Assembly (NCBI GenBank): GCA_964016885.1
Contig: OZ024746.1
Span: 95,790,001 to 95,854,000, forward strand
Reading direction: 5' to 3'
DNA: 64,000 nucleotides
DNA from: Eledone cirrhosa
Lineage: Eukaryota
A program made the translations under genes and the position numbers. Below, piece by piece: positions 1 through 64,000 of this stretch (position 1 is its first letter; each line of letters starts with the position of its first letter). A model generated the notes under the pieces. The model searched no databases. It was not told the origin of the DNA and worked only from the letters and a program-made list of their open reading frames with translations.

Positions 1-3000
1 GAAACATTAATTCTAGTTTCAACTATACCAATGAAAATGTACATAAGAAAATCTCTAGGTTTCGCTCACAACAGAAGTTTGTCTTTCTATGTTTCAGAAT
101 ATTTTACCTCAGAATCCAGCACAAAAGAATCCATATTAGAAAGTACAACTTTTGTATGGCATAAATCATTAATAACTACTTTGGGTTTAACTGATATATC
201 AGTAAAACCTGAAAAATCAATAATATACATCAACACCACCATTTCCCCAATTATACTGACCTCTGTAATAAAACCATTTAGTGGTTGGTATGCCTTAGAA
301 AGATCATTTGCTTCAAGATATAAATGGGAACAAACTTATAAGGCAGAGAAATCAACCCTTCATTTAAAGACCTTGAAATCCACTACAACTTCTTCATTAT
401 TAAAACTAACTCTTATGAGTGTACCTAAAATTGTGGATGATTTTAATAGACAACTAAATTTATCTGATTTTAAAATCCAGATTTCAACACTGCCTTTTAC
501 GTCAACACACACAAGACTCACTCTTAACACTGGTTATAGTACTGAACATTTTAATTTTACATTACTCCTGCACCCCTTAAAAACTAAAACTGGAGTAGAT
601 CTTAAACATCTTTTCTCAAATCTTACGTCTATGACAAATTTAGTTAGTTTAGTTTACTCAAAGGTTTCAACTTTAAACTCGTCAATAGATTTTTGGCAGA
701 AAAGCATTTCTATTGAGGTTACACCAAAACTACATGTTTCTTCATTAGTTTCATTGAAACATTATTTTGAGCAAGTAACACAAAGAGCAAAGATAATATC
801 AAACACATCAGTGGTAATTGTTACAAATGGAACTGAGTCTGAACAAATGGATTCTGTATTAGAAACACAGGGTCTAATGAAAATACAGACAGTAACAGGA
901 GTGACAAAACAACTAAAAAGAACAAGTTTCGCTGAAATGTCTAAATTAAAATTACATCTTTATACTACAAAATTAATGCACATTTCTCTTCATACATTTT
1001 CAGTTTCTCTTGCTCCTACTAAGTTATTTCTTATTGCTTCTTCTTCATCCAGTAGTCCTTCACTACCAACAAATATTTCTCTGTCTTCAACTGCTACTTC
1101 TACATATAAAGTTACATTTGAACAGAAATTTAATCAAACAGAGCCGACCATAAGATTACTAATAAATCAGTCAACTACTGACATCATATTTCATAATCAA
1201 AACACATCAACAACAGTGAAGCCATTAACAACTATGGAGCCAACTTACAGTGAATCCTATGATATAGTATCCTACTTCAGTAGAGTTAAATTAATCCCAT
1301 TCTTTTCTTTGTCATCAATAGGAGATATTATGTCAACAAATATGGTGTCAATTCAACAAAGTAATAAAACCGAAAGTAAATATTCAAAATCACATTTTAA
1401 ATTACATAATAAAACAACTACAGCTGTGGGATTTATTGAAACTATTACCAACTTTAGTGATAAAAAAAATGTTTCCGAAATTACTCCTATAACAACCATT
1501 CCAGTGAATATATCAACACAAACTTTGCTAACTAATGTAAGTGAATTTTCCATTCCATTCACAACTGATCTTAGTTTTCATTTCAGAACAATCTATCCTA
1601 CAACTATACTATCTTTTCATCAGATTACAAGTACAACTGGCCCACTGAATACAACAGTATCTATTCATTGGACAAAGGAATTAACACTCTTCCAAGAAAT
1701 ATCTATAGTCAGTCAGTCAGGTGTGATTTCTCCTCAAGAGGCGTCTCATCATTTTCTGTTTACTGTATCACCGTCACAAAATATATCAGAATTTACCATT
1801 CTAATGACTGGATCACCTTTTCTTAAAACATTTGACGATATTATGTTTACCCCAGCATCATTTTCGCAGATATCAGAAGGTACCAGCTTTCTAATGGGAC
1901 CATCTGTTGTTGAAACATCAAAAGATGTCCTATTTACTACAACCATACCACAGGTAGTTTCAGAAGGTACCAGCTATCTAATGGAACCATCTCTTGTTGC
2001 AATATCAAAAGATGTCCTATTTACTACAACTATACCCCAGATGGTATCAGAAGGTACCAGCTATCTAATGGGACCATCTGTTGTTGAAATATCAAAAGAT
2101 GTCCTATTTACTACAACTATACCACAGATAGTATCAGAAGGTACCAGCTATCTAATGGGACCATCTGTTGTTGAAATATCAAAAGATGTCCTATTTACTA
2201 CAACCATACCCCAAGCAGTATCAGAAGGTACCAGCTATCTAATGGGACCATCTGTTGTTGCAATATCAAAATATGTCCTATTTACTACAACCATACCCCA
2301 AGCAGTATCAGAAGGTACCAGCTATCTAATGGGACCATCTATTGTTGCAATATCAAAAGATGTCCTATTTACTACAACCATACCACGGGTAGTTTCAGAA
2401 GGTACCAGCTATCTAATGGGACCATCTGTTGTTAAAATATCAAAAGATGTTCTATTTACTACAACTATACCCCAAGCAGTATCAGAAGGTACCAGCTATC
2501 TAATGGAACCATCTGTTGTTGAAATATCAAAAGATGTCCTATTTACTACAACCATACCCCAAGCAGTATCAGAAGGTACCAGCTATCTAATGGAACCATC
2601 TGTTGTTGCAATATCAAAATATGTCCTATTTACTACAACCATACCCCAAGCAGTATCAGAAGGTACCAGCTATCTAATGGGACCATCTATTGTTGCAATA
2701 TCAAAAGATGTCCTATTTACTACAACCATACCACTGGTAGTTTCAGAAGGTACCAGCTATCTAATGGGACCATCTGTTGTTGAAATATCAAAAGATGTCC
2801 TATTTACTACAACTATACCACAGGTAGTCTCAGAAGGTACCAGCTATCTAATTGAACCATCTCTTGTTGCAATATCAAAAGATGTGCTATTTACTACAAC
2901 CATACCACAGGTAGTTTCAGAAGGTACCAGCTATCTAATGGGACCATCTGTTGTTGCACCATCAAAAGATGTCCTATTTACTACAACTATACCACAGGTA

Positions 3001-6000
3001 GTCTCAGAAGGTACCAGCTATCTAATGGAACCATCTGTTGTTGAAATATCAAAAGATGTCCTATTTACTACAACTATACCCCAGATGGTATCAGAAGGTG
3101 CCAGCTATCTAATGGAACCATCTATTGTTGCAATATCAAAAGATGTCCTATTTACTACAACCATACCACAGGTAGTTTCAGAAGGTACCAGCTATCTAAT
3201 GGGACCATCTGTTGTTGCACCATCAAAAGATGTCCTATTTACTACAACCATACCACAGATAGTATCAGAAGATACCAGCTATCTAATGGAACCATCTCTT
3301 GTTGCAATATCAAAAGATGTCCTATTTACTACAACTATACCACAGGTAGTCTCAGAAGATACCAGCTATCTAATGGAACCATCTGTTGTTGCAATATCAA
3401 AAGATGTCCTATTTACTACAACCATACCGCAGATAGTATCAGAAGGTACCAGCTATCTAATGGGACCATCTGTTGTTGCAATATCAAAAGATGTCCTATT
3501 TACTACAACCATACCACAGATAGTATCAGAAGGTACCAGCTATCTAATGGAACCATCTCTTGTTGCAATATCAAAAGATGTCCTATTTACTACAACCATA
3601 CCACAGATAGTATCAGAAGGTACCAGTTATCTAATGAGACCATCTGTTGTTGCAATATCAAAAGATGTCCTATTTACTACAACCATACCACAGATAGTAT
3701 CAGAAGGTACCAGCTATCTAATGGGACCATCTGTTGTTGCAATATCAAAAGATGTCCTATTTACTACAACCATACCACAGATAGTATCAGAAGGTACCAG
3801 CCTATTAGTTGAACCACCTTTTCAAGGAACATATGAAGATATTTTATTAACTGCATTTTCTTTTCAAGAAACTTCTGAAGATAGAGTAATCTATTCTGAA
3901 ACTAGCCAGTTGCTCCAGAAGCACCAGTCTTTTCACCATGTCACAACCATGAAAGTAGTTGTAGAAAGTCCTGATTTGATTTCATCAGTGTCAGATATAT
4001 ATGAAACACATACAATACCAGCCTGGATGTATTTGAATGAAACATCAACATGGAAATTGCAGAAGGTTTTAAAATTCAAAGACCAAACTGACAAACCAGT
4101 CACCAATGAATTACTCACAGTAACCAGCAGAAGTTACTTTATCAAAGAAGAACAGTCTATGGCAACTGATACTGGAACTGGAACTAAATGGTATAAATAT
4201 TTAGAAACCTCTACACTAAAACTGAGTTATGAATTACCAAGAGATGAAAAAAAGATACAAATGTACCAGAAAACAAAAACTATATTTAATGAAACTGCTA
4301 TAACTTCTTTTTTAATTGGATATTCTAATCAAACTAATACTTCTATTTCATTTACCCAATTAATTAAAAGTACTGATGCAGATTTTATATTTCATCAAAC
4401 CTCTAAATTAAAAGCAATAGGTCGAACTACTGAAGCTAAAGTTTGTCAAACTAAAGGACTTCCTTTTAGTCCCTTAGTTTCATCAATAGCAATTGTTATT
4501 ACTACAGAAAGTACTAGTAAACATTTATCAACCAAACCAATGCTTAGTATAGATCCAACATATCTGAATTTAACAGTGGACTATGAAGCATTAAGTAAAA
4601 CTGTTGCGGACATTAGTAAAAGAAGTATTTTGGCAACAGACCAACAATTACAGACGTTTCCTGAAACTAAAGTAATAAAAGGAACAACTACTGATTATGT
4701 AATTTCATTTTCTTATGATGCTTCTGAGAAAGTCACACACCATACTTCCAAAGAAATACTTAGCTTCCAGAAAACATGGAAAATGTTTTATATTCTTGAC
4801 AAAATTTATTCACAATCATTACTTGAAACCTCTTCTGAAGTAACTGATTACATTTTGGTAACAAGCCAAACCTTTCTAGAATCTTCTATTGTTAGAGTAA
4901 GTTTCCAAAGAAAAGGAAAATCTTCTGAAGTAACTGATGTTATTAAACAGACAGAACTAAAAACAATTTCAGATACTGTGACTTTTAGCCATAAAGATTA
5001 TATTCACTTACTTCAATACAGTCCAACGACAAAAGCTGCTATTGAGGACATTTACACATATCGTCTTGCGTTGGAGGACACATCAATGTCAAAAAGACCC
5101 CAACGATTATTATCTACTAAAATTAAAACAATAAGTAATTTTACTATGAAATTAGATACTCATGAGGATAAAAGAGACAAAACAATTTCACCATATACAA
5201 ACCTAACAACAACAAGGAACATTACTTTTATGTTTGACTTACCGCTAATGGTCACCTTAAATTATAGCAAAGATGTGGTTTCCTCAAAGTTTAAAACACT
5301 TTTGAAAGTCCCAGGTTTATCAAATGTTACTAAATTCATTGGAACTATACCTTCTTCTTATTATTATTCTAAAGGAAGAAGAGAACATTTATCGGAAGTT
5401 GATAAAACAAGAATTAGCATAGGTTTAGTGACAAAGAAGTATGAACGTGAACAAACAACCATTGTAGTTTTGGCTACAATAGAAATGGAAGCTGTTTCTA
5501 ATATCTATGACAAAAATGCTACAATATACCACACAGATTCTGAAATATTCACATTCACTAGTAAAATAAAGACTAGAGTGGTCAATGGAAGCCAAATAAA
5601 GAGTAAGATTTTAAGTGAATCAACAACATCTAGCAGCCTCATAAAATATATTCCAGAACATAAACTAACTTTTGATGAAATGTTATTTTATACAACAACA
5701 ATTCAAAATTTAACTGCCATAAAAGTATCACAAGTTAAAGCCCCTGTTATTGAATTTGAAATATCAACATTAATAACTACTTTATACTGGCCAGTGGTAG
5801 CTTTTATACACGATAAGAAATCAACAGGTGAAATATTCTTTACTACATCAATAACTGATTTCACATCAACAGAAAGTATGTTATTAGATGGTCACACAAG
5901 TTCAAAAATATTCATCTATAAACAAAAGTCACTTTTATATGAAATTCTGCAAACGAAACACCATACTACATATCCAGAAACAGGATCTACAGATTACATA

Positions 6001-9000
6001 TCAACCCCAGAGAAGAGTCTTACACCACTACATATGGATTCATTAGCATTAGCTACCATTGGATTACACACAACAGTTATGGGAACATTAATATTTACTC
6101 CAAAAACTATTGAATATACTACCCCTGCCCAGCAAACAACTGTTGAAGAACAAATGGGCAGGAATGTAACATCTTTAGAAGAAAAAGATAAACATATATT
6201 GATATATTTGATTGAAGTAACAGAGCAGAAAACTACAATTGTTCCAGTAACATTTACACCAAAGTCTAAGAAAATATCTGAGCTAATTTCAGAAAAAGTA
6301 ACTCAAATGACACTCTTTACTTATTTTAGATACCCTGAATCAATAACTGACACACCATTAATAAATATATCTGATGTTACACATATTTTGAGAAAACTTA
6401 TAAGAGAAACTGTTTCACATGCATCAAAGAAATCACTTCATACAAAAATTGTTCCAGATGGCTCAATAGAGAGTTTGAATAAGTCTTTACTGCTAACAAA
6501 GGAAGAAAACACAACTTATTTTAAGATTGAAACTATAACCTTTTCTATGAAAGAATTCAATATATTTGTTCAGAGCCCTAATCTAATAGAAGATATAAGT
6601 ACTTATATGCCTAGTTCTCTTGTAGTGATATCTACTGAAGATATTTTGTTAAGAAGTAAACTAAGACCTTCAGAATATCTGGATAAGATAGATAGAGCAT
6701 ATTTTACAAGGGAGGAAATTAGTTTGGAATCTGGGGCAAGGGAAATTGGTACTCAACGTAGTTTTACAAAGATTATTGTAAACATAACTGATGATATAAC
6801 AATTATAAAAATAGCGACAAAGACAAGTGAGAAACCTATCGAGTTAGAACCAACTTTGATAACAATTATTCCAGCAGATAAGATAGAACCAACTTTGAGA
6901 AAAGTTATTTCAACAGATAAAATAAAACTGACTTCAATAACAGTAATTCAAACAGATAAAATAGAACCAGTTTTCATGACAGTTATTCCAACAGATGAAA
7001 TAGAACCAGTTTTCACAACAATTATTCCAACAGATAAAATAGAAATAGTTTCAAGAACAGTTATTCCAACAGATGAAATAGAACCAGTTTTCACAACAAT
7101 TATTCCAACAGATAAAATAGAACCAGTTTTCACAACCATTATTCCAACAGATAAAATAGAAATAGTTTCAAGAACAGTTATTCCAACAGATAAAATAGAA
7201 CCAGTTTTCACAACAATTATTCCAACAGATAAAATAGAACCAGTTTTCACAACAATTATTCCAACAGATAAAATAGAAATAGTTTCAAGAACAGTTATTC
7301 CAACAGATAAAATAGAACCAGTTTTTACAACAATTATTCCAACAGATAAAATAGAACCAGTTTCCACAACAGTTATTCCATCAGATAAAATATATACTAA
7401 TCACACAAATATATCTGTAATCCAGAATATTACAATGACAATTGGTATGAAGTTTTATTTGGAAACAGTTACAGTTTTTAAAGATACAATAAAATCAGCA
7501 GCCACAAAAGACATTGATATACTTGAAATAGGATCCACTCTGGCTTCTATCTATCAAATTCCAGAAGAATCTATCAGTAAGAAGCCAGCAATAAATGTAT
7601 CAAAAATAACTATCTTAAAAAGAACAATAAAGCCCAGGGATTTTGAAGACAGTGTCGCTGGCTTAAAATATATATGGCAGTCTGGAAGTGGGTATTTTAC
7701 TAGTTTAAATTATTCTAAAACCTACCTCTTTCATACGACATATACCCTGGAAAAAATATCTGGGTTACATTTGACAGTAACACCAGTATTTTATATTGAA
7801 ACTATTTCTATTCCGAAAGTAGATTATATTCAACAAAAAGAATTATCTTTGATGACTACAGTAAAATTACCTATATGGATGGAATCTCAAGATGAAGGAA
7901 GAAAAACGAGCAGTGAAAATGTTTCTGAAATTCAAACAACATTTTCTGAAAAGAGGACTCTTCTAGATGTACCTATTACAAATATCTCTGACTTAGTTAT
8001 CTATGTGTTTACTACTAAAGTAATTGGTAAGCCAGTCACTGCTAGTCACATGACTTACAAAAATATTTCAAGTGATATGTTAATAGATCTTGATGTTGTT
8101 ATATCCACCAATACTACAGTTAGTGATATAGTGACACCACATTTATACCAAACAGTAACTAAAACTTATGATGACATCCACCAACAATCTATTGAAAGTT
8201 ATAAAAATGTAACCAGCAAGAAAGAGTTTGAGGAAGAAGCAGCAAAAGATTTGCTAAAACAAACTTCAAGACACTCTAAATTTACAGATGACTTTATTCG
8301 TATGTCTAGAATAAATTACTCTATTTCTTTTACCAGCAAATCTTCTAAGACCTTTTCATCTCATCATTTTGATAGAAATACCACCACCAGCAGCAGGAGA
8401 ACATACTTTGTGGAACATACTGTAAGACCAGATAAATTATATAACAGAAAATCAAGTTTAAGAAGCAGTTCTTTCCTATCTTACAAAACTGTTCAACCAA
8501 CAGTCATGTTAGCTATATCAAACATTACTGTTCATACTAAAACAACTGCAAAACAAGTAATACATAAACTAACATCTGACACAATGTTTCCTATAACTGA
8601 AAAGCCTGTGTTCCTTACTAGTATCAAGAATGATTCTAAACCAAGACTAGTGGATATTGTACTAAAAGAAATAAGTTCTGAAATTATTACACCAAGTTCA
8701 AGTTTCGTTTTGAAGAAAATATCAAAGGAAACCTTATCATTTAAGAAAGAAGTTACTGAGAAACCTTCCTTACACATTTACAGTCGAGCTGTTGTGAGTT
8801 ACAATCAAAAAATGAGTACACAGGATCTAATCATTCATAAATTTCTAACTAAAATTGTTACTCCTAAAATTAAACCCCAACTTAGTCTTGCAGCTGTGAA
8901 CATTACAAGTTTTGATTTACAAGAATTTATATATCTTATGAGCCAAGGGGTAACAATACCAAATATATTCTCTAATATATCTTTTGTCACACTGTTTTTT

Positions 9001-12000
9001 AACCAAAGTATTTATATGATAGATAGTTCCACCAAATCTAGTGTTGATGAAGTGGCTACAATTCCTTACAGCAAATATATTGGTATAGAAACAACTGGAG
9101 ATACAAGAAGTGTAGTTCATATACATCACTTACCTTTAACTACTGAGATACTGTTTGATATTAGTATTAGTGTATCTAACATGAGCCTTGATGAAATCAG
9201 AGATACAACCCTATCAACATTGCAGGAAACAGCAAGTATTTATATAATTAACACAACTGATACTATACTTAGAGATACTATACATAGAGGTACTATACAA
9301 AGAGATACTATACATAGAGGTACTATACAAAGAGATACTATACATAGAGGTACTATACTTAGAGATCCCAGTGGAACAGAGATATCAAAAATAATCCAAG
9401 TTACACCCATTAAAAAACCTGATATAAAAATAAAAATTACAGCAACTGATGAAATGATTTCACTTACAGTCAGCAGTAAAACATCAGTGTTACATTTAAA
9501 AGCTAGAACCAAATTAATTTCTACTTCTCATACATCAAAACATTTATCTGTAGTATCATATAAAACAAGCAGTGGGTTAATTTCAAAGGAAAATGACACA
9601 GAAGCAGCAATTACAACAACATATTTTATTGTTCCTCATATGAAAGCTAAAAACTATACTGATCAGATTGTACTTCAAATGACACCTACATTAGAGAGTA
9701 GAAGCCATCTTGAAAACAGAACAGATATAATGCAAAGTTCTTTTCTTGAATTGCCAGATATCTTTTTTCTGTATACTGAATCACCAGAAATATCTACAAG
9801 ATTTGATGATATTCAATTGCTGCAAGAAAAACTTTTATATTCTAAAAAAAGAAAAGTGGCGAATGTTATCAACATAATTACAACAACAACAACAAGAATC
9901 AATATAACTATGTTACCATTAACAGAAACTATCTTTCCAACTTTACAAACAGTTAGTACCATAAACAATTATACTATTGCAATGCAATTGTTTACTACTG
10001 TGAGAAGTGTAAAGAAAACATCACAAAAGGAATATTATAAAAAATATAGCCACAGTTATAAATTAAGATCTAAATCAGTGACGTTTGAGACAATATATAC
10101 AAAAGTAACAGATAAAACAATGAAACCCAACCAAATCATGGAACAAATTGGCATAAAGGATATGCTGTATTTAAATACAGAACAAAACATGTTTGATTCC
10201 TTGTTATTGAACACTTTACTTATACCAACACTTGTTATTACAAAAGAAAGCAGTTCTTCCTATCAGAATCAGACCCAGAAGGATTCAGTGCTTCATAGTA
10301 GTAAGGTTCGTGATATTTTTATCCCATTCACTACGATAAAAACTTGTAAATATACAAAAGAAGACAGGACACCAACTTTAGATCAAACAATTGTGCTGAG
10401 AAGAACCTCTCCTGGCAGTTTCTCTCTGAGTAAATCTGGAGAGTACAGTTTGTCAACAGAATATACTTCCTCAGTTTCACAATTTATATTTGATAAAACA
10501 GAAGATGATAATTATTTTACAGATGAAATAATTTCTTATGATAAAAAAGGATTAATACTACCCATAACCAAAATAAAAAAGAAAGATTTACTCAAGGGGC
10601 TCACAGATTATACTACCCAAAGTAAGATCGATAAAGTAACATTGGGATATATTTATGGAATAGATACAGTAATAGTTAATAAAACCTATACTCCCCAACA
10701 AAGAGATACTGTTACAGTTACAAAATTTCCAAGCAGTGACAAGTCACAAGTTTTTTCTATAGATACATTCATAGTGACAACTTATTCAGGATTAGAAATG
10801 GTATTGGCAGTAACAACAATTTCAGACAAAACTAAAGCACCATTACATATATCAACTGAAGTTGGACATATCACCCCCATGATTCCACATAGTACTCCTC
10901 TAACTCCTAAGGCCACTATTACAGTACTACATACTACTTCACTAAATCCATATTCTGTCCTTACGATACCACACTCGACAGTTGTAACTTTACATATAGC
11001 TGTCACACAACTGAATATTACTACTATTACAGTACCAGACACTCTCTCAACAGAATCATATACAACCATTACATATTCTCATACTATTGAAATACCACAA
11101 ACAGCCACCACGTCTCGACATCCTCAAACTCTAATTCCATCCACATCTGCTACAATTCCTCATGGCACCTCTATATTACCACAACAAACAAGTGTATTAT
11201 CAAAGTCTACAACCAAATCAACAGATGCTGTTGTTACTGTAGCACAACATCACACAATACTTTCATACAGTGTCACTGAAGAAACATATACAACCTCTAT
11301 AAGTAGAAACAGCACAATAACATCACATATCAGAACTGTAACACAACATACCATAGTTGTAATACCACCTGACATACCAACAATAACATCATATAACACA
11401 ACAATAACACCATATAACACAACAATAACACCATATAACACAACAATAACACCATATAACACAACAATAACACCATATAACACAACAATAACACCATATA
11501 ACACAACAATAACACCATATAACACAACAATAATACCATATAATACAACAATAACACCATATAACACAACAATAACACCATATAACACAACAATAACACC
11601 ATATAATACAACAATAACACCATATAACACAACAATAACACCATATAACACAACAATAACACCATATAACACAACAATAACACCATATAACACAACAATA
11701 ACATCACATAACACAACAATAACACCATATAACACAACAATAACACCATATAACACAACAATAACACCATATAACACAACAATAACACCATATAATACAA
11801 CAATAACACCATATAATACAACAATAACACCATATAACACAACAACACCATACAACACAACAACACCATATACCACCACCACAACAACACCTTACAACAT
11901 AACAACAACACCCTACAACATAACAACAACACCATACAACACAACAACAACACCCTACAACACAACAACACCATACAACACAACAACAACACCATACGAC

Positions 12001-51000: not shown

Positions 51001-54000
51001 TCATTTACTTCCATAACTATTACTACAGATGATTTAATCCCAATATCTGTTTTAATAAATGGTTCTACCATTGTACCTATTGCTATGGCTAACATGTCTG
51101 CTGCTATAGAGGACTCAGTCCCCACACTTGTTGTTAAAGATGGCTCAATAAATGGATCAATGTTTACTAGAAATGATTCTAGAACGATAACAGTTCCCAC
51201 TAATGATACAACCAGACCAGACATTATTGAGTTTTCAAAGATAGAAAACTACAGTATTATATCTACAACAGTTCTGACTGATATTAAAATAACTGTGTTA
51301 ACTACTTATAGTATTGTAATAAGAGACTCAGTTGTTGAAGATCATACGATACTAAGCTCATCTACAACTGATCACTGGATGACAGGAGTATCAGCTACAG
51401 ATTATATAAAACCTTTAATGATTATAGATCAATTAATCACTGGTTTAATTACTGATGCTGACACAGTATATGAACCAGATGCTACTGAAGAGGTTGTGTA
51501 CAAACCAGTAGTTATCAGTGTAATGATATCTAAACCAATTGCTACAGATGTAGTGACATACAAAACAGTTGATACTGACATTATAACAGCTCAGTCATTT
51601 ACTATGGAGAGAACAAGGTATCAGCCATTAACTATTGATGTGACAGTATCTAAATCAATTATTCTTGATGCTGTGACAAATAAAACAGTTGACACTAAGG
51701 ATAAGGTAGACAGATCTATTGCTACAGATGTAGCAATATACAGACCAATGGTGACAGATACAACAATAGACAAAGCTATTGCTACAGATGTAGCAATATA
51801 TAGATCAGTAGTGACTGATATTATAGAAAGATCTATTGCTACAGATGTAGAAATATACAGACCAGTGGTGACTGATACAATAGAAAGATATATTGCTACA
51901 GATGTAGAAATGTACAGACCAGTAGTGACTGGTACAACAATAGACAGATCAGGGGCTACAGATGTAGAAATATACAGACCAGTGGTGACCGATATTATAG
52001 AAAGATCTACTGCTACAGATGTAGAAATATACAGAACAGTGGTGATTGATACAACAATAGACAAATCTATTGCTACAGATGTAGAAATGTACAGACCAGT
52101 AGTGACTGGTACAACAATAGACAGATCAGTGGCTACAGATGTAGAAATATACAAACCAGTGGTGACTGATACAATAGAAAGATATATTGCTACAGATGTA
52201 GAAATGTACAGACCAGTAGTGACTGATACAACAATAGACAGATCAGGGGCTACAGATGTAGAAATATATAGATCAGTGGTGACTGATAAAATAGAAAGAT
52301 CTATTGCTACAGATATAGAAATATACAGACCAGTAGTGACTGCTACAATAGAAAGATCTATTGCTACAGATGTAGAAATGTACAGACCAGTAGTAACTGA
52401 TAAAATAGACAGATCTATTGCAACAGATGTAGAAATGTACAGACCAGTAGTGTCTGATACAACAATAGACAGATCAGGGGCTACAGATGTAGAAATGTAC
52501 ACAACAGTGGTGACTGATACCACAACATATGGATCAGTTCTTACTGATGTGTTTATACATAAGCAGACTGCTACAGTTGCTATAACGTATAAACCACTAG
52601 CTTCTGATCTTGTGACATACAGACCAGTTACTACAGATTATAAAGTAGATGAACCATTTGCTACCCATGTTGTGATAATGAAACTTATTGTTTCTGATAT
52701 CATAACATATAGACCATTACCTTCTGATATCATATCATATAGACCACAACCTTCTGATATCATAACATATAGACCATTACCTTCTGATATCATATATAGA
52801 CCATTACCTTCTGATATCATAACATATAGACCACTACCTTCTGATATCATATCATATAGACCATTACCTTCTTATATCATAACATATAGACCATTACCTT
52901 CTGATATCATATCATATAGACCACAACCTTCTGATATCATAACATATAGACCATTACCTTCTGATATCATAACATATAGACCATTACCTTCTGATATCAT
53001 AACATATAGACCACAACCTTCTGATATCATATCATATAGACCATTACCTTCTTATATCATAACATATAGACCATTACCTTCTGATATCATATCATATAGA
53101 CCATTACCTTCTGATATCATAACATATAGACCATTACCTTCTGATATCATAACATATAGACCATTACCTTCTTATATCATAACATATAGACCACAACCTT
53201 CTGATATCATATCATATAGACCATTACCTTCTGATATCATATCATATAGACCACAACCTTCTGATATCATAACATATAGACCACAACCTTCTGATATCAT
53301 AACATATAGACCATTACCTTCTGATATCATAACATATAGACCATTACCTTCTGATATCATAACATATAGACCATTACCTTCTGATATCATAACATATAGA
53401 CCATTACCTTCTTATATCATAACATATAGACCACAACCTTCTGATATCATATCATATAGACCATTACCTTCTTATATCATAACATATAGACCATTACCTT
53501 CTGATATCATATCATATAGACCATTACCTTCTGATATCATAACATATAGACCATTACCTTCTGATATCATAACATATAGACCATTACCTTCTTATATCAT
53601 AACATATAGACCACAACCTTCTGATATCATATCATATAGACCATTATCTTCTGATATCATATCATATAGACCACAACCTTCTGATATCATAACATATAGA
53701 CCATTACCTTCTGATATCATAACATATAGACCATTACCTTCTTATATCATAACATATAGACCACTACCTTCTGATATCATATCATATAGACCATTACCTT
53801 CTTATATCATAACATATAGACCATTACCTTCTGATATCATATCATATAGACTACAATCTACTGATATCATAACATATAGACCATTACCTTCTGATATCAT
53901 AACATATAGACCATTACCTTCTGATATCATAACATATAGACCATTACCTTCTGATATCATAACATATAGACCATTACCTTCTGATATCATAACATATAGA

Positions 54001-57000
54001 CCATTACCTTCTGATATCATAACATATAGACCATTACCTTCTTATATCATAACATATAGACCACAACCTTCTGATATCATATCATATAGACCATTACCTT
54101 CTGATATCATATCATATAGACCACAACCTTCTGATATCATAACATATAGACCATTACCTTCTGATATCATAACATATAGACCACAACCTTCTTATATCAT
54201 AACATATAGACCACTACCTTCTGATATCATAACATATAGACCATTACCTTCTGATATCATATCATATAGACCACAACCTTCTGATATCATAACATATAGA
54301 CCATTACCTTCTGATATCATAACATATAGACCACAACCTTCTGATATCATATCATATAGACCACAACCTTCTGATATCATAACATATAGATCAGTTATAT
54401 CTGATATCATAACATATAGACCACAACCTTCTGATATCATATCATATAGACCACTACCTTCTGATATCATAACATATAGACCACTACCTTCTGATATCAT
54501 ATCATATAGACCACAACCTTCTGATATCATAACATATAGACCACAACCTTCTGATATCATATCATATAGACCACAACATTCTGATATCATATCATATAGA
54601 CCACTACCTTCTGATATCAAAACATATAGATCAGTTATATCTGATATCATAACATATAGACCACTAACTTCTGATATCATAACATATAGACCACAACCTA
54701 CTGATATCATAACATATAGACCAGTCATATCAGATATCATATCATATAAACCAGTTATATCTGATATCATAACATATAGACTACAATCTACTGATATCAT
54801 AACATATAGACCACAAGCTACTGTTATATATGATATCATAACATATACTCCTGTTATATCTGATATCATAACATATAGACCAGTTATATCTGATATCATA
54901 ACATATAGACCACTAACTTCTGATATCATAGCATATAGACCTTTTATATCTGATATTATAATATATAGACCCGGTACTACTCGTGATGCTGTGGTTAGAC
55001 ATGTTTCTACTGATGATATAAGGTTTAGACCAACTATTGGTGGTGATATATTTGTTAGATCAACAGCTACTGATGTAGTTTTACATAGACTGGTTGCTAC
55101 TGCTCCAGTAACAAATACAACTATGGCTTCTGGTATTGTAATATTACAAATACATGTGTATACAGATGTGATGACATATATATCACTTACTACAAATAAG
55201 ACCACATACGAACATATTGTTATTGATGAAACTGATGAGACTGTAAATATGTCAGTTACTACAGACGGAATCAAGTCTAAGTCAGTTACAACACATAAAG
55301 TCATACCAAGTTCAACAGCTAGTAATGAAACAATATCTAGATCATTTAACACATACAAAAGTGTATCTGAATCAATTGCTAGTGATGAAATACAATCAAA
55401 AATGATTACAACTATTGATGTAACAATATTGACATCTTTTATAGAATCTGAAACTGTACGAGTTTCAGGGATCAAAGTTACAGCAACATCAGAACCAGTT
55501 GATACAGATAAAGTAATAACTGGATTAATTGACACTAGATCAGTTGTCACACATAGAACAATGACTGGATCAATTGTTACAGACAAATCAATACCTGGAT
55601 CAGTTGTTACAGACAAATCAATACCTGGATCAATTGTTACAGATAAAACAACTCCGGTATCAGTTGTTACAGACAAATCAATACCTGGATCAGTTGTTAC
55701 AGACATAACAATACCTGGATCAGTTGTTACAGACAAAACAACTCCTGGATCAGTTGTTACACACAAAATAACTCCTGGAGTAGTTTTTACAGACAAAACA
55801 ACTCCTGAATCAATTGTTACAGACGAAAAAATACCTGGATCAATTGTTACAGACATAACAATACCTGGATCAGTTGTTACAGACAAAACAGCTACTGGAT
55901 CAGTTGTTACATACATAACAATTGCTAGATCAGTTGTTACAGACAAAATAACTCCTGGGTCAGTTGTTACAGATAAAACAACTCCTGGATCAATTGTTAC
56001 AGAAAAAACAACTCCTGGATCAATTGCTACAGATAAAACAACTCCTGGATCAGTTGTTACAGAAAAAAAAACAATACCTGGATCAATTGTTACAAACAAA
56101 ACAATACCTGGATCAATTGTTACAGATAAAACAACTCCGAGATCAATTGTTACAGATAAAACAACTCCGAGATCAATTGTTACAGACAAAACAATACTTG
56201 GATCAGTTGTTACAGGCAAAACAATAATTGGATCAGTTGTTATAGACAAAACAATACCTGGATCTGTTGATACAGACAAAAGAACTCCTGGATCAGTTGT
56301 TACAGACAAAACAAGTCCTGGATCAGTTGTTACAGACAAAACAATACCTGGATCAGTGGTCACACATACAAAAATACCTGGATCAGTTACAACTGGTGAA
56401 ACAATAACTGGTTCAATTGATATTGATAAAACATTATCTAGATTATCCACCTCCAATGAAACAACATCAATCACCAGTGAAGGATCAATATATGGATTAG
56501 TTACTTTTGATGATTTAACATCTGAATCCACTGGTGGCATAGAGACTGTATTACCTACTGTTACTGGTGAAGATATATATAGACCATTTAGTGGTGTAGT
56601 GACTATCTTAACAACTGCAACAGATGTAAAAGTATATAGGCCAGATGATGGTGTTGAATCTGTATCAACAACTGTCACTGATGTAGAAATATATAGAACA
56701 GTTAGTGGTGTAGAGACTACCTCTGCAGCTGTTACTGATGTAGATATATATAGAAAAGTTAGTGGTGTAGAATATGTCTCAACAACTACCACTGATGTAG
56801 ATATATATAGACCAGATGATGGCGTAAAATCTGTATTAACAACTGTCACTGATGTAGAAATATATAGACCAGATGATGGTGTAGAAGCTGTCTCAACAAC
56901 TGTTACAGATGTAGAAATATATAGACCAGTTAGTGGTGTAGAGACTACCTCAACAACTGTCACTGATGTAGAAAAATATAGACCAGATGATGGTGTAGAA

Positions 57001-60000
57001 GCTGTCTCAACAACTGTTACAGATGTAGAAATATATAGACCAGTTAGTGGTGTAGAGACTATGTCAACAGCTGTTACAGATGTGGATATATATAGACCAG
57101 ATGATGGCGTAAAATCTGTATTAACAACTATCACTGATGTAGAAATATATAGACCAGATGATGGTGTAGAAGCTGTCTCAACAACTGTTACAGATGTGGA
57201 TATATATAGACCAGTTAGTGGTGTAGAATATGTCTCGACAACTAATTTTGTTGCTTCCAGTAAAACAATAATTGGAAACATTACCACTGATGAAATAATA
57301 TCTAAATCAACTTTCACTGAAACAATATCTGGATCAACTGAGATAATGTTTCATGCAATTGTTGCCAAAAAGACAATATTAAAATCAGTTGTAACTATTA
57401 CAACAATACTGGGGCAAACTACTACTGATGATGAAATAGTTTCCATTGATGAAGCAATATATGAACCAGTTTCTACTAGCTTGATAATATATAGTCCAGT
57501 TGCCACAGATGTAGTCCATAAACCAGCTGCTAGTGTGGTTACAAACAAGACAGTAGTTAGCATAGATGAGGCAGTACTTGCCACAGATGAAATAATACAT
57601 GGCACAGTTACTACAAATGATACAATACCTGGAGTAGTTGATACAGATGAGATAATACCAGACACAGTTGCCATAGATGAGACAATATCTGATTCATTTT
57701 CTATGGATGAAACAATATCTGGTGCTGTTGCTACAAATGAGATAAGATCTTGTACTGTTGCTACTGATAAGATAATAATTAGTACACTAGTTACAGATGA
57801 TACATTACTTGGTTCAGTTGCTACAGATGAGATACGACCTGATACAGTTGATATAGATGAGATAAGACCTGGTACAGTTCCTACAGATGAGATAACATCT
57901 GGTACAGTTTCTACAGATAAGATAATAACTAGTACAGTTGTTACCAATGATACATTACTAGGTTCAGTTTCTACACATGGGATAATATCTGCCACAGTTG
58001 CTACAGATGAGATAGCACCTGGTACAGTTACTACAGATGAGATATCTATTACAGTTGTTACAGATGGAATAATATCTAGTACAGTTGTTACAGATGCAAC
58101 CTTACCTGATTCAGTTTCTTCAGATGAAATATCTGGTACAGGTGATGCAGATGAGATAAAACCTGAAACAGTTGCTACAGCTGCGATAGCATCCGGTACA
58201 GTTACTACAGATGAGATAATATCTAGTACAGTTGTTACAGTTGCAACATTATCTGATACAGTTTTTACAGATGGCATATCAGGTGCAGTTGGTATGGACG
58301 AGATAATATCTAGTACAGTTGTTGCAGTTGAGATGATATCTGCTACAGTTGCTACAGATGAGATAGTAACTGACTCAATTGCTACAGATGAGATAGTAAC
58401 TGACACAGTTGTTATAGATGAGATGATGCTTGGTACAGTTGCAATAGATGAAATGATATTTGACACAGTTGCTACAGATGAGATGATATCTGGTGCAGCT
58501 GCTACAGATGAGACAATACCTGGTACAGATGAGACAGATATAACAATGTCTGGTGCAGTTACTAAAGATGAGATATCTGACACAGTTGCTATAGGTGATA
58601 TCATATTAGGGGCAGCTGCACCAACTGAGACAATATCTGAAAGAAATATTACTAATGAGACAATATCATCCACTGTTGCTACAGATAAAATAATACGTAG
58701 CATAGTTGCTACAGACAATAAAGCACCTGGGACATTTGCTACAAATGAAACAATTTTTGGCTCAGTTGCCAATGATATGATAATGATTATTAGACTAATA
58801 ACTGCTGAAAAAAGTTCTGCACAGATTGATATTGATGTTAGTGGAGATGTTACTGATCACAGAATAACTAAAGCAGTTGTAACTGATGATATGATGTCTA
58901 GTGCAGTTACTACTATTGAACCAGTGCTTTCCACAGTTGCTACAGATGAAGATGAAACAATACTTGGTAAAGTTTCAACAGATGAAATAATACCTAGTAG
59001 AGTAGATGCAGTGGAAATAATACCTCGCACAGTTGCTACAGATGACAAAACACCTGGTACAGTTGCTACAGATGAAATAATACCTGGTAGAGGTATTACA
59101 ATTGAGATATCTGGTATAGTTGATACAGATGAGATAACATCTGTTACAGATGAGACAATGTCTGGTACAATTGCTACAGATGAGATAATACCTGATATAG
59201 TTGTTACAGATGAAATGATACCTGGTAGAGTCACTAGAGATGAGATAATAGCTGACACAACTGCTACAGAGGAAATGATACCCGACACAGTTCTTACAGA
59301 TGAGGCAATACCTGACATAGTTGCTACAGATGAAATAATAACTGATACAATTGCTACAGATGAGATGATACCTGACACAGTTCTTACAGACGAGGCAATA
59401 TCTGACATGGTTGCTATAGATTATACAATACCAGTTGTTGCTTATGATATAATACATGGCCCTCTTGCTACAACTGAAGTACTTTCTAAATCAGTTTCTA
59501 CTGATGACACACGACATGGATCAGTTTCCACTAATCAGACAATACATGAGTCAGTTTCAACCAATGTGATGATACAAGGATCAGTTTTCACTGACGTAAC
59601 AATACACGGACTGGTTTTAACAGATGTGATGATAGAAGGATCAGTTTCATCAGATGTGATGATAAATGGATCAGTTTCATCAGATGTGACGTTAAATGGA
59701 TCAGTTTCAACAGATGAGACACTAATTGAATCAGTTTCAACAGATAAGACAATCCATGGATTAGCTTCGACAAACATGACAATACTTGGATCAGTTTCTG
59801 TTGATATAGAAATAAAAGGATCAGCTACCACTGATGATTCCTCAGTTGGGTTAGTATCTACTAACTGGACAGTAATTAGAGTAGCCTTCACTGATATAAC
59901 AAGAGGTAGATATATTCTTTCTGAAGATACAATAGGTAGACCAGTTACAATTAATGAGACAATAGCTAGACAGATTGCTCCTAATGAGACAATAGCTAAA

Positions 60001-63000
60001 CAAGATCTAACTAATAAGACAATAATAGTTAGACCAGTCATCACAGATGAGACAATTATCAAAACAATTGTTACTGATAGAGTTATAACCATGTATGATT
60101 TAGTATTAATATCAGTTGCAATCACTGACACAACACCAGAATCAATTGTTAGTTATGATGTAATAACTATGTATGATACAACACCTATTACTGAGTCTGT
60201 TTATGATATAATGTCTCTACCAATAGATACTTCTGGTATAATGTTTGCTCAGTCAACTGTAACTGAAAAAGAAACAACTGAATCACATAAGGATGAATAT
60301 ACAATAGCTACATTTAGTACTTCTGATTATGTTAAGAGAAAACTAATTGCCACTGATAAAGGTTTAACAACTATGTCACAAATAACTATTGTTGTTAGGA
60401 AATCTGTTAAATATAAATCTGATGAAACTACTTCTTATAAACCAAGGACTGAAACTGTAAAAGAATTTAGTGTCACTGATATTCAAACAGCCCAGCCACA
60501 AATCATCTATATTGAAGTTTTTACTGATGATCATATAACTGTTATTCAAGATAAGGAATTAGAAATAACTACTTATTCAAGTCTTCTAATATCAGATAGA
60601 TCAGTGCAGTTTATTGATATAAAAAGCCTCTATCAAAGTGATATCATAAAACAATATTCAATTACAATTGATGTAGTTGTTAAAGATGAGATAATGTCTG
60701 CCACAGATGAGATGATACCTGGAATTAAAATAACTGTTACTACTGATAGCAGCCAACAAAACTATTCCTTTCCAGTCACCCATATTACTAGACTCTTCAT
60801 TGATTCTAATGTAAGTATGCCATTTATTGGTTATATTTCCTTCAAGAAGATTAGTGAAAAGGTTGTGAGAAAAGAATTTGAATATGGTTTATTTACTGAT
60901 GTACTGGATATAACTAATATTACTAAACCACAGCCATCATTCCTTGATAAAAGTGAACTAGAAATTAGAGAAAGGCTGTCTTCTATAACTCCCCAAATTG
61001 AAATGACACCAACATCAAGTCAAGAAATAACAGATATATTATTTGTAAGTGATACAATAAAAGTTGTCACAGATATGATAGAAATGTCAACCAATATATA
61101 TAGAAATATATCACATGAAGATTATACTCCAGAGACTGTATATTTCGACAGCAGCAAAACTTCTTTCAGTGGAGCATTTGATGTTCAGACTGTAACAGTC
61201 TCAGTCTTTATAATACCAACAAGAAAATCTAAAATTTATGACATTTGGATATCTGGTAGTTTTTCAACCATATCACTAGATGAAAAAAAAAGTATATCAC
61301 TAAAAACAACAACTGAAATTGCAATGAAAATTGCAGATAATGAAACAGAAATGTATACAACAACAAAAGAGCCCTTAATTAGTAAAACTTCAAAATATTC
61401 ATTTGTCCAGAATGTTACTGCATATGGCATCAACACAACAATCACAAGATCAACTTCTGTTATGGCAACAACACAATTTGATTGTAAGTTAATAGAGCAG
61501 AACATTAGTTTAGCTGATAAAAATGACACAGCAACACCATATCTACTCCTTATACATGAGACAACAACCCAAAGCTTAGTAATAACTGTTACCACAGCAA
61601 AGTATTCTTTTACTAAAATTAAACTTCCAGCTACCTTCCAAATGCATACAACTACTTTAGTTGTGGGAGATAAAAATTTAACTTCATTTCTTGGGAAAGA
61701 ACCTTTTATTAAGTCAATACCTGACACATTTGTGACAATAGATTATAAACTACTTCAATTCCAAACAGATATTTTGACTATTGATAATAAGACAATAGAC
61801 GAAATGACCGTGGGTGTAACTGAGATTTTAACTCAGCTTATGTTTGTAACAGTTACACCAGAGTCTTTAATTCCAACAGATGTTGAACAAAGCCAAAGGT
61901 TTATCATTTATAGTACAAAAATGCTTGATTCATCTCACAAAACATTTTATTATTTTACAAACGAATCCACCAGAGCACTAAGTCAAACAAAGGCTGTAAA
62001 GCCTATTGTTAGAACAACTAAATTAGAAGATAGTACTGAGAAAGCAATAACAATGAAATATGATTATTTAAAAGAAAAAAGCTTAACAAGTAGTAAAGAA
62101 ACAATGATCCTGTTTAATACAATGAAAACCCAATGGACAAAAACATACGAAACAGCTATAGCAACCAACACAACATACAAAGGTTTTACAATTCTATATA
62201 TTGTTACATCACCTAAAGAACAACTAATTTCTAAGCCATCTGATACTGATATCATATTAAAACCCCCAGTAAGTTTGATACGAGAGACAATAATATATGA
62301 TCGAATTGGAAGAGTGGTGACTGAAGGATTCCTACATGTGAAAGACATCTCAGAAGACAAAGAAATTGTGACATTCAGTTCAAAACATGTGGTATCTGAA
62401 GACCAAATAATTCAAGAAACAGATACATATAAATTAATCTATTTAAAAACCAAAGATCAAGACATGATTACATCAATAATACCCCATATAATATCTAAGG
62501 CAGTATTGTTTACACATAAATATGGAACTTTTAATGATACCTTCCCTATTGTCTCTATAACAGAAAATATAACATCTGTAGATGTAACATATGTAATATT
62601 TACAGTAGAACATGTATCTCCTCAATATATAACAGATGTTACTTTAATATCAGAACATGTAATAATACCTGATACTTATATATCAAAACATATATCATCT
62701 AGAGATACACTAACAGACATTTCTACACAAAAACCTGACACATTTAAAGATGAAGTAACATTCACTGATATATCAAACAAAACAACATTTGTACATGTAA
62801 TAGGTATTTCTATGATATCAGTTATTATTACATCTAGAGATATAACAGTGGTTAGTACTATACCAGACCATGTGACATCTGCAGATATAACAGCAGTTAC
62901 TTCTATACCAGACCATATAACAGCTGCAGATATAACAACAGTTAGTACTATACCAGATCATATGACATCTGCAGATATAGCAACAGTTAGTACTATACCA

Positions 63001-63999
63001 GACCACATGACATCTGGAGATATAGTAGCAGTTAGTACAATACCAGACCATGTGACATCTGAAGATATAACAGCAGTTAGTACTATACCAGATCATATGA
63101 CATCTGGAGATATAACAGCAGTTAGTACTATACCAGACTATGTGACATATGGAGATATAACAGCAGTTACTTCTATACCAGATCATGTGACATCTGAAGA
63201 TATAATAGCAGTTAGTACTATACCAGACCATGTGATAGCTGGAGATATAACAGCAGTTACTTCTATACCAGCCCATGTGACATCTGGAGATATAACAGCA
63301 GTTAGTACTATACCAGACCATGTGACATCTGGAGATATAACAGCAGTTAGTACTATACCAGACCATATGACATCTGGAGATATAGCAGCAGTTAGTACTA
63401 TACCAGACCATGTGACATCTGGAGATATAACAGCAGTTACTTCTATACCAGACCATATTACTGCTGGAGATATAACAACAGTTAGTACTATACCAGATCA
63501 TATGACGTCTGGAGATATAACAGCAGTTAGTACTATACCAGATCATGTGACATCTGGAGATATAACAGCAGTTACTTCTATTCCAGATCATGTGACATCT
63601 GGAGATATAACAGCAGTTAGTACTATACCAGACCATGTGATATCTGGAGATATAACAGCTGTTAGTACTATACCAGACCATGTTACATCTGGAGATACAG
63701 ATACTGTTAGTTCTGTACCAGACCATGTGACATCTGGAGATATAACAGCAGTTAGTACTATACCAGACCATGTGACATCTGGAGATATAACAACAGTTAG
63801 TACTATACCAGATCATATGACATCTGGAGACATAACAGCAGTTAGTACTATACCAGACCATGTGACATCTGGAGATATAACAGCAGTTACTTCTATACCA
63901 GACCATATTACTGCTGGAGATATAACAACAGTTAGTACTATACCAGATCATATGACGTCTGGAGATATAACAGCAGTTAGTACTATACCAGATCATATG
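1..63999 (+). CDS. Giant mucin-like Thr/Ser-rich glycoprotein, internal fragment of at least 21,333 aa, open at both window edges
   Basis: Frame +1 begins ETLILVSTIPMKMYIRKSLGFAHNRSLSF and ends ...DITAVSTIPDHM. I found no stop in the segments I translated by hand (first 1.6 kb, the arrays, several spacers). The ORF track lists no frame +1 ORF although there is an in-frame ATG at 31, which implies no in-frame stop downstream. All repeat units and the indels I examined are multiples of 3. Confidence 0.93.
1867..3801 (+). repeat. 87-nt coding tandem repeat, 22 units, 29 aa SEGTSYLMGPSVVAISKDVLFTTTIPQIV
   Basis: TCAGAAGGTACC recurs from 1873 to 3787, a span of 22 x 87 nt. Confidence 0.95.
6844..7389 (+). 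repeat. 39-nt coding tandem repeat, 14 units, IEPVFTTIIPTDK with IEIVSRTVIPTD variant
   Basis: ATTCCAACAGATAAAATAGAA recurs every 39 nt; the first three units are diverged. Confidence 0.92.
9259..9363 (+). repeat. 15-nt coding repeat, 7 units, alternating DTIHR/GTIQR
   Basis: GATACTATACATAGA / GGTACTATACAAAGA alternate. Confidence 0.9.
11380..11841 (+). repeat. 21-nt coding repeat, 22 units, TITPYNT
   Basis: Near-perfect tandem ACAATAACACCATATAACACA. Confidence 0.95.
11842..13902 (+). repeat. Variable 18-24-nt coding repeat, about 100 units, PY(N/T)(T/I)TT(T); almost G-free on the + strand
   Basis: CCATACAACA(T/C)AACAACA(ACA) with a variable number of ACA codons. Confidence 0.92.
14005..14763 (+). 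repeat. 21-nt coding repeat, about 36 units, TTTPLHI
   Basis: Tandem ACAACTAC(A/T)CCATTACATATC. Confidence 0.94.
14830..18018 (+). repeat. 21-nt coding repeat, about 150 units, VTPPD(T/I)(A/G)
   Basis: Tandem GTAACTCCACCTGACA(C/T)AG(C/G)T, a PTS-mucin-like unit. Confidence 0.96.
21715..21843 (+). repeat. Short diverged 48-nt (2 x 24) coding repeat, FESTTKEPFKxxxKIx, about 2.7 units
   Basis: ACCAC(G/T)AAAGAACCATTT occurs three times at 48-nt spacing. Confidence 0.75.
23041..26470 (+). repeat. 36-nt coding repeat, about 95 units, TPYNYSIDTITT, with degenerate copies extending to about 22410 and 26990
   Basis: Tandem ACACCATATAACTA(C/T)AGTATTGATACAATAACAACT, with a few 30-nt in-frame deletion units. 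Confidence 0.96.
33328..34245 (+). repeat. 33-nt coding repeat, about 28 units, MTPVT(Q/E)S(K/V)SL(T/I/A)
   Basis: ATGACCCCTGTAACA recurs at 33-nt (occasionally 30-nt) spacing. Confidence 0.92.
35638..35790 (+). repeat. Old diverged 54-nt repeat, 3 units, (H/Y)STExYTxIxIPSxxxxT
   Basis: Translates YSTERYTIIVIPSTAATT / HSVGGHIIIEIPSATTIT / HSTENYTVIGIPSAA. Confidence 0.65.
37039..38358 (+). repeat. 39-nt coding repeat, about 34 units, TVASSQSMEEGTQ
   Basis: Tandem ACAGTGGCCTCCAGTCAATCTATGGAGGAAGGGACACAA, with degenerate copies from about 36850. Confidence 0.95.
44521..46818 (+). repeat. 30-nt coding repeat, about 76 units, EVKPRT(T/I)VSD
   Basis: Tandem GAGGTAAAACCCAGGACTA(C/T)TGTCTCTGAT. 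Confidence 0.96.
47071..47820 (+). repeat. 27/30-nt subunit repeat with a 54-nt dimer, DDVTWSVVS / DDVTTSIAR / DDVTVTSLVT
   Basis: GATGATGTCACA starts nearly every subunit. Confidence 0.92.
47930..48336 (+). repeat. Diverged 30-nt repeat, RSG(A/V)(S/D)D(E/A)ATT, about 13 units
   Basis: ACAAGATCTGGAG recurs. Confidence 0.8.
48712..49020 (+). repeat. Diverged 30-nt repeat, DDVTMG(Y/F)T(A/V)(S/F), about 10 units
   Basis: GATGATGTAACA recurs at 30-nt spacing. Confidence 0.75.
49525..50680 (+). repeat. 63-nt composite coding repeat GTDEPIVSDDKVTRAIVTRTI (48/63/78-nt variants built from 15-nt IVxRT modules), about 18 units
   Basis: GGCACTGATGAACCTATTGTCTCTGATGAT recurs. Confidence 0.92.
51718..52520 (+). 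repeat. 57/60-nt coding repeat ATDVE(I/M)YRPVVTD(T)TI(E/D)RSI, about 14 units
   Basis: GCTACAGATGTAGAAAT(A/G)TACAGACCAGT recurs. Confidence 0.9.
52693..54970 (+). repeat. 30-nt coding repeat, about 75 units, SDII(T/S)YRP(L/Q)P
   Basis: Tandem TCTGATATCATAACATATAGACCATTACCT. Confidence 0.96.
55537..56390 (+). repeat. 30-nt coding repeat, about 28 units, (I/T)PGS(V/I)VTDKT
   Basis: Tandem CCTGGATCA(G/A)TTGTTACAGA(C/T)AAAACA. Confidence 0.92.
56566..57240 (+). repeat. 57-nt coding repeat, about 12 units, TDVEIYRP(DD/VS)GVExxSTTV
   Basis: GATGTAGAAATATATAGACCAG recurs; DDG and VSG units largely alternate. Confidence 0.9.
57580..60100 (+). repeat. Degenerate ~30-nt coding repeat region, consensus near VATDEIIPGT, grading into GSVSTDVTIx
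   Basis: GTTGCTACAGATGAGATA-like motif recurs with ~30-nt period and low identity. Confidence 0.8.
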
Positions 64000-64000
64000 A
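62830..64000 (+). repeat. 45-nt coding repeat, about 26 units and truncated by the window end, VSTIPDHVTSGDITA
   Basis: Tandem GTTAGTACTATACCAGACCATGTGACATCTGGAGATATAACAGCA. Confidence 0.95.

Follow-up and report, generated by a model that had tools for sequence, protein, structure and literature searches.

The human membrane mucin MUC4 is described (PMC8660890, PMC4902942) as having one large exon for the Pro/Thr/Ser-rich (PTS) 'mucin domain', NIDO, an AMOP position, a GDPH motif in VWD, EGF-like repeats, a transmembrane segment and a short tail. Its one chain is presented as putatively cut at GDPH, which would leave the repeat, NIDO and AMOP in an outer mucin subunit and VWD, EGF and the tail in a membrane subunit (PMC8660890). 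A single very large coding exon, missed before long reads, is also present in the human membrane mucins MUC3B and MUC12, which, unlike the gene reported here, are SEA-type mucins. Exon 2 of MUC3B is given as 39,267 bp (PMC9578598), and the longest MUC12 allele encodes 23,080 aa (PMC13345508), a protein length from which we derive an exon of at most about 69 kb. Here we report on a window of 64,000 nucleotides from the octopod Eledone cirrhosa (C6:95,790,001-95,854,000, on the 102.6 Mb contig OZ024746.1 of a 3.0 Gb assembly), analyzed together with the 100 kb to either side of it. We are fairly confident that this window belongs to the one PTS exon of a type I membrane mucin resembling MUC4, and that this exon has expanded to 128,751 nt. 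The open frame, its splice sites, the C-terminal domains, the collinearity with octopod orthologs and the selection on N-glycosylation sequons carry this reading.

The preliminary description of the window had reported that frame +1 was open wherever it was translated, and that the track of open reading frames (ORFs) showed nothing in this frame despite an ATG at position 31. The ATG is indeed in frame +1, and full translation (1..63999) gave 0 stops in 21,333 codons, versus 643-2,457 stops in the other five frames. Judging from the definition of the track, the frame was missed because it runs off both window ends. In the genome it remains open from -17,513 to 111,330 (128,844 nt, 42,948 codons, 0 stops, no N). 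Coordinates are given here in an extended window numbering, in which the genome position is 95,790,000 plus the coordinate (sequence C6, OZ024746.1), and on the plus strand unless stated otherwise. A T-rich tract followed by CAG, 85 nt inside the open frame, forms a phase-1 acceptor (9.7 bits). At the other end, a phase-1 donor (AG/GTAAG, 12.0 bits) lies 8 nt before the frame's stop and is followed by a microsatellite-rich intron. Neither score falls outside those of the other splice sites in this gene. Since both splice sites are in phase 1 and in frame, they delimit a coding exon of 128,751 nt (C6:95,772,572-95,901,322, i.e. -17,428..111,322); in the longest MUC4 allele, the corresponding length is 27,843 bp (PMC13345508). 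The window (1..64000) is the middle half of this exon (ORF codons 5,839-27,171, frame +1), which runs 17.4 kb further upstream to the acceptor and 47.3 kb further downstream to the donor. The giant coding exon proposed in the preliminary description is therefore genomic and bounded by canonical in-phase splice sites, at twice the size of the window; the MUC16 exon to which it had been compared is out of date as a benchmark, given MUC3B and MUC12.

With 16 downstream exons, the giant exon gives a 17-exon model that has canonical GT-AG introns, no internal stop and a terminal TGA at 150,256. As had been suggested, extension beyond the window thus provided the acceptor, the donor and the terminal stop; the start exon is discussed below as a candidate. 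The predicted full chain counts 43,875 aa (4.83 MDa), with 877 sequons and 12,752 Ser/Thr, and about 98% of it comes from one exon. Its length and the one-exon status are both read from genomic sequence, with the start exon inferred.

Selection on this region at the protein level is almost certain. Tandem Repeats Finder (TRF) masks 44% of the window, in agreement with the earlier estimate that roughly half of it is non-repetitive. The 23,136 non-repeat codons of the exon contain 0 stops in frame, versus 2,155 and 2,359 in the other plus-strand frames. From the base composition at each codon position, 1,045 stops would be expected (log10 P about -464), so the open frame is not due to chance even after allowing for composition, as the preliminary description had argued. 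N-glycosylation of proteins entering the endoplasmic reticulum (ER) follows the N-X-S/T rule. Among the non-repeat Asn residues of the window, 249 of 305 have Ser or Thr at +2, versus 22-33% for the 13 other residues tested, and the whole exon gives 505 of 651. At other offsets from Asn, Ser/Thr account for 17% (+1) and 25% (+3), and Asn-Pro is avoided (4 of 653, with 25.8 expected). With every Asn counted, sequons account for 68-100% in 20 of the 22 bins (2,000 codons each) along the exon, the two low bins being the first two (38/100 and 6/14). This bias is the strongest sign of translation, and is what selection for N-glycosylation would be expected to produce in an ER-entering protein.

The exon also differs from its surroundings as DNA. 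All 45 of its arrays of at least 100 bp have a triplet period; in the flanks, this is so for 20 of 49. The 129 kb of exon have 4 non-triplet microsatellites versus 163 in 135 kb of flank, and dispersed repeats, which make up 30-32% of the flanks, amount to 0% and 1% of the exon (one 66% low-complexity match). Five exon differences were listed from short-read contigs; the four that were translated comprise 1 silent and 3 missense changes and 0 stops, while the fifth sits in an array near a contig end, and 31 more table rows fall outside this tally. A count of variant types within arrays (389 nonsynonymous, 135 synonymous) was left unused because it has no null model. A non-coding satellite, biased DNA or a mobile element that is open by chance would be in keeping with the A-rich, G-poor strand and with the finding that three large pieces of the exon contain no Pfam family. 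This explanation is refuted for practical purposes by the stop statistics, the sequon bias, the ortholog collinearity and the in-phase splice to NIDO, and the exon part examined has single-copy depth over most bins. As a separate observation, CpG is rare in the non-repeat parts of the exon (285 versus 704 in synonymous shuffles, z -24.8), which fits gene-body methylation.

The exons that follow allow the gene to be named, which goes beyond the preliminary description. Three NIDO exons (118,262-122,850) are followed by an AMOP-like exon of 426 nt (123,952-124,377), six exons for GDPH, VWD and the region after it (126,691-141,413), three EGF-like exons (142,333-144,695), and a transmembrane exon with two tail exons and the stop (147,090-150,256). 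NIDO (PF06119) is above the Pfam cut-off on two exons (1.4e-12 and 1.1e-6). The chain has a single GDPH motif, at residue 43,272. VWD is weak on single exons and reaches 3e-7 and 4e-9 (Pfam) on ortholog proteins, and EGF is found by Pfam on one exon (2.7e-4). The transmembrane segment is the sole stretch with a Kyte-Doolittle mean above 3. The Cys-rich exon assigned to AMOP by its position is single-copy in the genome, and its Cys motifs resemble those of Pfam-positive AMOP pieces of the same genome. The gene thus combines a large one-exon Ser/Thr/Pro repeat region with NIDO, GDPH-VWD and an EGF/transmembrane/tail part and, judged on this architecture, it is a MUC4-like membrane mucin of an octopod, closest among known systems to human MUC4 and to the MUC4-like NIDO-AMOP-VWD mucins of invertebrates. 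It departs from MUC4 in that the signal core is apparently inside the giant exon and AMOP is below Pfam detection. A 'mucin-4-like' protein is reported from the skin mucus of Octopus vulgaris (PMC11431876); it may be the product of this gene or of another NIDO locus, of which the E. cirrhosa genome has several.

Orthologs are represented by predictions from other octopods (XP_014785347.1, XP_052824421.1, GAB1598474.1, GAB1609470.1 and, in O. vulgaris, CAI9724495.1). The C-terminal exons share 67-95% identity with them, and the AMOP-position exon matches the O. bimaculoides 'mucin-4-like' protein (87%) and an Argonauta hians mucin-like protein (72%). In the O. bimaculoides and Argonauta models the same giant-exon donor is joined to the first NIDO exon; these models begin at an internal Met and retain the last ~900-1,080 aa (O. 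bimaculoides) or ~670-720 aa (Argonauta) of the giant exon, with 61% and 43% identity, respectively, at its 3' end. Inside the window, 31609..52836 (window residues ~10,540-17,610) is collinear with the 4,617-aa 'hypothetical protein' CAI9724495.1. There, 3,756 of 4,298 non-repeat residues could be aligned, at 54.8% identity and with 126 gap runs, versus 535 of 2,862 repeat residues. As unique residues align and arrays mostly do not, the scaffold appears to be old and the arrays to be lineage-specific expansions. With lengths of 1,586-4,617 aa, the octopod models hold only pieces of the giant exon, and the suspicion that the gene is giant and mis-annotated is borne out. The public models probably lose the exon because of the cap that gene finders put on exon length and the failure of short reads in arrays.

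Some features of the C-terminal region and of the introns are mentioned here for completeness. Two near-identical Argonauta models on different contigs have GDSH in place of GDPH, and autocleavage may be lost. The newer O. bimaculoides model stops after the exon matching 134,900-135,023, and in E. cirrhosa a long Cys/Val/Ala-rich tandem array (134,876-137,180) lies in the intron just after that exon. Remnants resembling the reverse transcriptase of long interspersed nuclear elements, named by eye from translations, are present in introns and flanks at 128,857-129,790, 133,400-134,100 (minus strand), -83,800 (minus strand) and 157,800-158,300.

The translation of the window is rich in Thr, Ile, Ser, Val, Asp and Pro, with only 15 Cys, and alternates between about 20 unrelated Thr/Ser/Pro-rich arrays and unique Thr/Ser/Ile-rich linkers. 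The main arrays consist of 22 copies of 87 nt (29 aa; 1871..3816), three adjoining Thr/Pro arrays of 21 nt (7 aa) with about 123, 36 and 150 copies (11378..17984), 97 copies of 36 nt (12 aa), most with a sequon (23020..26484), 28 copies of 33 nt (11 aa; 33324..34246), 34 copies of 39 nt (13 aa; 37037..38359), two arrays of 30 nt (10 aa) with 77 and 76 copies (44507..46819 and 52692..54971), and a 45-nt (15 aa) array that starts at 62830 and has 26 copies up to 64000 and 91 overall, continuing to 66,924. The tryptic peptide TTVSDEVKPR, put forward earlier for mass spectrometry, occurs 21 times in the first of the two 30-nt arrays. The whole exon has 35 arrays of at least 300 bp, with 29% Ser plus Thr and 5.8% Pro; 46% of it is tandem by TRF and 54% is unique, in contrast to MUC4, which has mainly one variable-number tandem repeat (VNTR).

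With 46% of the exon in arrays, where short-read contigs break, its length could have been inflated by assembly error. O. vulgaris is without most arrays, and a paralog on sequence C8 described below has a gap inside an array, as this explanation would have it. We nevertheless hold it to be very unlikely. The 69.4 kb of unique sequence have 1 self-match of at least 100 nt, the copies within arrays are diverged (65-97% matches), the exon contains no N, and random errors break frames and do not open them. Moreover, even an exon stripped of all arrays would still equal the largest MUC12 allele. DNA runs contain 97-99% of the sampled words of window 27,000-33,000, and short-read contigs, 5.86 kb long, cover the acceptor and 5.6 kb at the start of the exon without gaps, showing 0, 0 and 4 differences.

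That the region is one exon of a full-length mucin, as we think quite probable, has to be weighed against the proposal that it is coding but divided, with internal or recursive splicing, or internal polyadenylation, giving shorter mucins, and with the 43,875-aa chain made rarely or never. Several results do speak against the undivided exon or limit its support. No RNA run containing window 27,000-33,000 was found in the read index. The three runs listed for it behave as DNA of one sample, with the intron covered and genomic repeats very deep, and are therefore uninformative on expression. The short-read runs come from one sample, possibly the assembly's own source, and fragment in arrays. Matrix-scored donors inside the exon are about as numerous in sense as in antisense (150 versus 142 at 7 bits, 4 versus 5 at 11 bits), and of 10 motifs for splicing and poly(A), a single one is clearly low (AG/GTA, 24 versus 44.9, z -3.5). 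AATAAA shows no depletion (77 versus 71), and the best donor heptamer is absent from the exon as it is from 26 of 200 shuffles. Cryptic sites are thus not generally depleted, and the sequence by itself leaves room for internal splicing. The ortholog evidence covers about 7,100 plus 2,200 of 42,900 codons; CAI9724495.1 is a prediction, compared as protein alone, that may hide introns, and a word search for orthologs of window residues 1-3,800 gave 0 of 2,121 candidates (lengths 2,090-6,650). For exon codons 30-1,200, phmmer found no true homolog among 1.84 billion proteins, its single match, a nematode repeat protein, being rejected as low-complexity. The AMOP-like exon has no Pfam match and no PDB match at E 10, and its own profile scored true AMOP pieces no higher than shuffled decoys.

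Shorter mucins would further be favored by the many cryptic donors and acceptors left in the exon, by its phase-1 ends, as skipping keeps the frame, and by the precedent of the human isoform MUC4/Y without exon 2 (PMC4902942). On the other hand, every part of the exon would still need translation to keep its frame and sequon bias, and its 129 kb hold no intron-like stretch with microsatellites or dispersed repeats. Full skipping would also drop the signal peptide core, given the start exon proposed below. We consequently rate a divided transcript as distinctly improbable.

The candidate start exon is a 48-nt exon at -24,958..-24,911 (C6:95,765,042-95,765,089). It has a good acceptor and a start codon as well as an in-frame stop, and its donor scores highest among 121 candidates in 142.6 kb. 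It would place Met-Thr-Gly ahead of the hydrophobic, signal-like stretch (Kyte-Doolittle 2.05) that opens the giant exon, so that the signal peptide's hydrophobic core would be encoded within the giant exon itself. An earlier candidate near -40,390 was dropped, being outside the 12 best donor scores. Upstream of the gene, a 67-nt GC-rich tandem array (about -72,900 to -69,600), with related sequence near 155,400, is probably a mobile-element satellite.

The first ~1,000 exon codons are basic, Cys-bearing and Ser/Thr-poor, with little sequon enrichment. This N-terminal region has no Pfam family, and the ESM Atlas gave no usable match. About eight Cys, ~19 residues apart, are found at ORF codons ~705-880 (about -15,400 to -14,880), each preceded by alternating hydrophobic residues; they could belong to a small beta-repeat or cross-linking domain. 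A single-sequence AlphaFold model of the Cys-spaced 204 aa was not used (predicted local distance difference test score of 35). Besides, dibasic-Asp-Ile motifs, which are possible convertase sites, occur in unique linkers at ORF codons 552, 4,504, 17,887 (window nt ~36,150) and 35,942.

These features raise the question of a polyprotein, in which proprotein convertases would act at dibasic sites of the whole chain and release several secreted glycoproteins from it, the N-terminal region being a cross-linking or pro-domain. Three Lys-Arg-Asp-Ile sites and one Arg-Arg-Asp-Ile site, the conservation of Arg-Lys-Arg at the window site in O. vulgaris, and the sharply different composition of the first 1,000 codons would all suit this scheme. 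There are, however, only 2 strict R-X-K/R-R sites outside arrays, and the N-terminal part has no family or fold match, and we regard such processing as unlikely.

For a membrane mucin made as one chain, the following sequence of events can be proposed. A short upstream exon would supply the start codon, and an mRNA of ~132 kb would give one 43,875-aa chain translated into the ER. This chain would be N-glycosylated at its sequons and O-glycosylated at its Ser/Thr, most of them in the outer subunit. By analogy with MUC4, cleavage at the single GDPH motif would yield an outer subunit of ~43,270 aa and a membrane subunit of 602 aa. Glycosylated mucin chains measure about 0.25 nm per residue, and translation proceeds at a few residues per second; with these figures the outer subunit could reach ~10 micrometres and translation would take hours. 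Displayed on, or shed from, the epithelium, the product would form a glycan brush of great length that serves lubrication and barrier function, with a likely role in skin, sucker or gut mucus. The exon itself would have grown as short units repeatedly expanded in tandem at local sites within an older unique scaffold common to Octopus.

This gene is not the only one of its kind. The genome contains several NIDO loci, and among 7 others checked upstream (20-110 kb each), 1 has a giant frame. It lies on C8, minus strand, from about 46,339,500 to 46,257,389, and is a PTS frame of ~82 kb that is nearly all simple VNTR: 13,792 stop-free Thr/Pro codons, a gap of 200 N, then another 40,590 nt that end at a phase-1 donor, after which come exons for NIDO, an AMOP-like segment and GDPH.

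The largest human coding exon that we found in print, that of MUC12, is about half the length of the octopod exon. Titin (363 exons) and PKZILLA-1 belong to the same size class as the predicted chain; they are multi-domain folded proteins from many exons, unlike the octopod chain, which comes essentially from one exon and is probably extended and glycosylated. PKZILLA-1 is reported with 45,212 aa, 4.7 MDa and 17 exons, about 25% above titin (bioRxiv 10.1101/2024.01.29.577497), and predicted Omnitrophota proteins reach 85,804 aa (bioRxiv 10.1101/2023.11.21.568195). In a literature search that covered a minority of subscription papers, no publication listed described a gene of this size or any coding exon exceeding it, and the five octopod accessions are named in no paper of the literature searched. 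It seems fairly probable to us that no longer coding exon has yet been seen in any organism and that its product, made as one chain, is the largest animal protein, exceeding titin and, in mass, PKZILLA-1. More than half of the exon would then be unique sequence that octopod genera share in conserved form and that is under selection chiefly for an open frame and N-glycan sites, and octopods would have two or more exons of this kind (129 kb and ~82 kb).

If true, the known limit for a coding exon, now about 69 kb, would rise to 129 kb and that for an animal protein above titin, and the octopod spliceosome and ER would handle exon and chain sizes not known to be possible. Exon definition far beyond cross-exon range, ignoring some 150 donor-like sites, becomes testable, as do the avoidance of premature polyadenylation and the ER passage of a chain needing hours to be translated. 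The cephalopod models found hold small pieces of the gene, which affects octopus mucus proteomics. The locus also offers a case of mucin growth through many separate arrays within a conserved unique scaffold.

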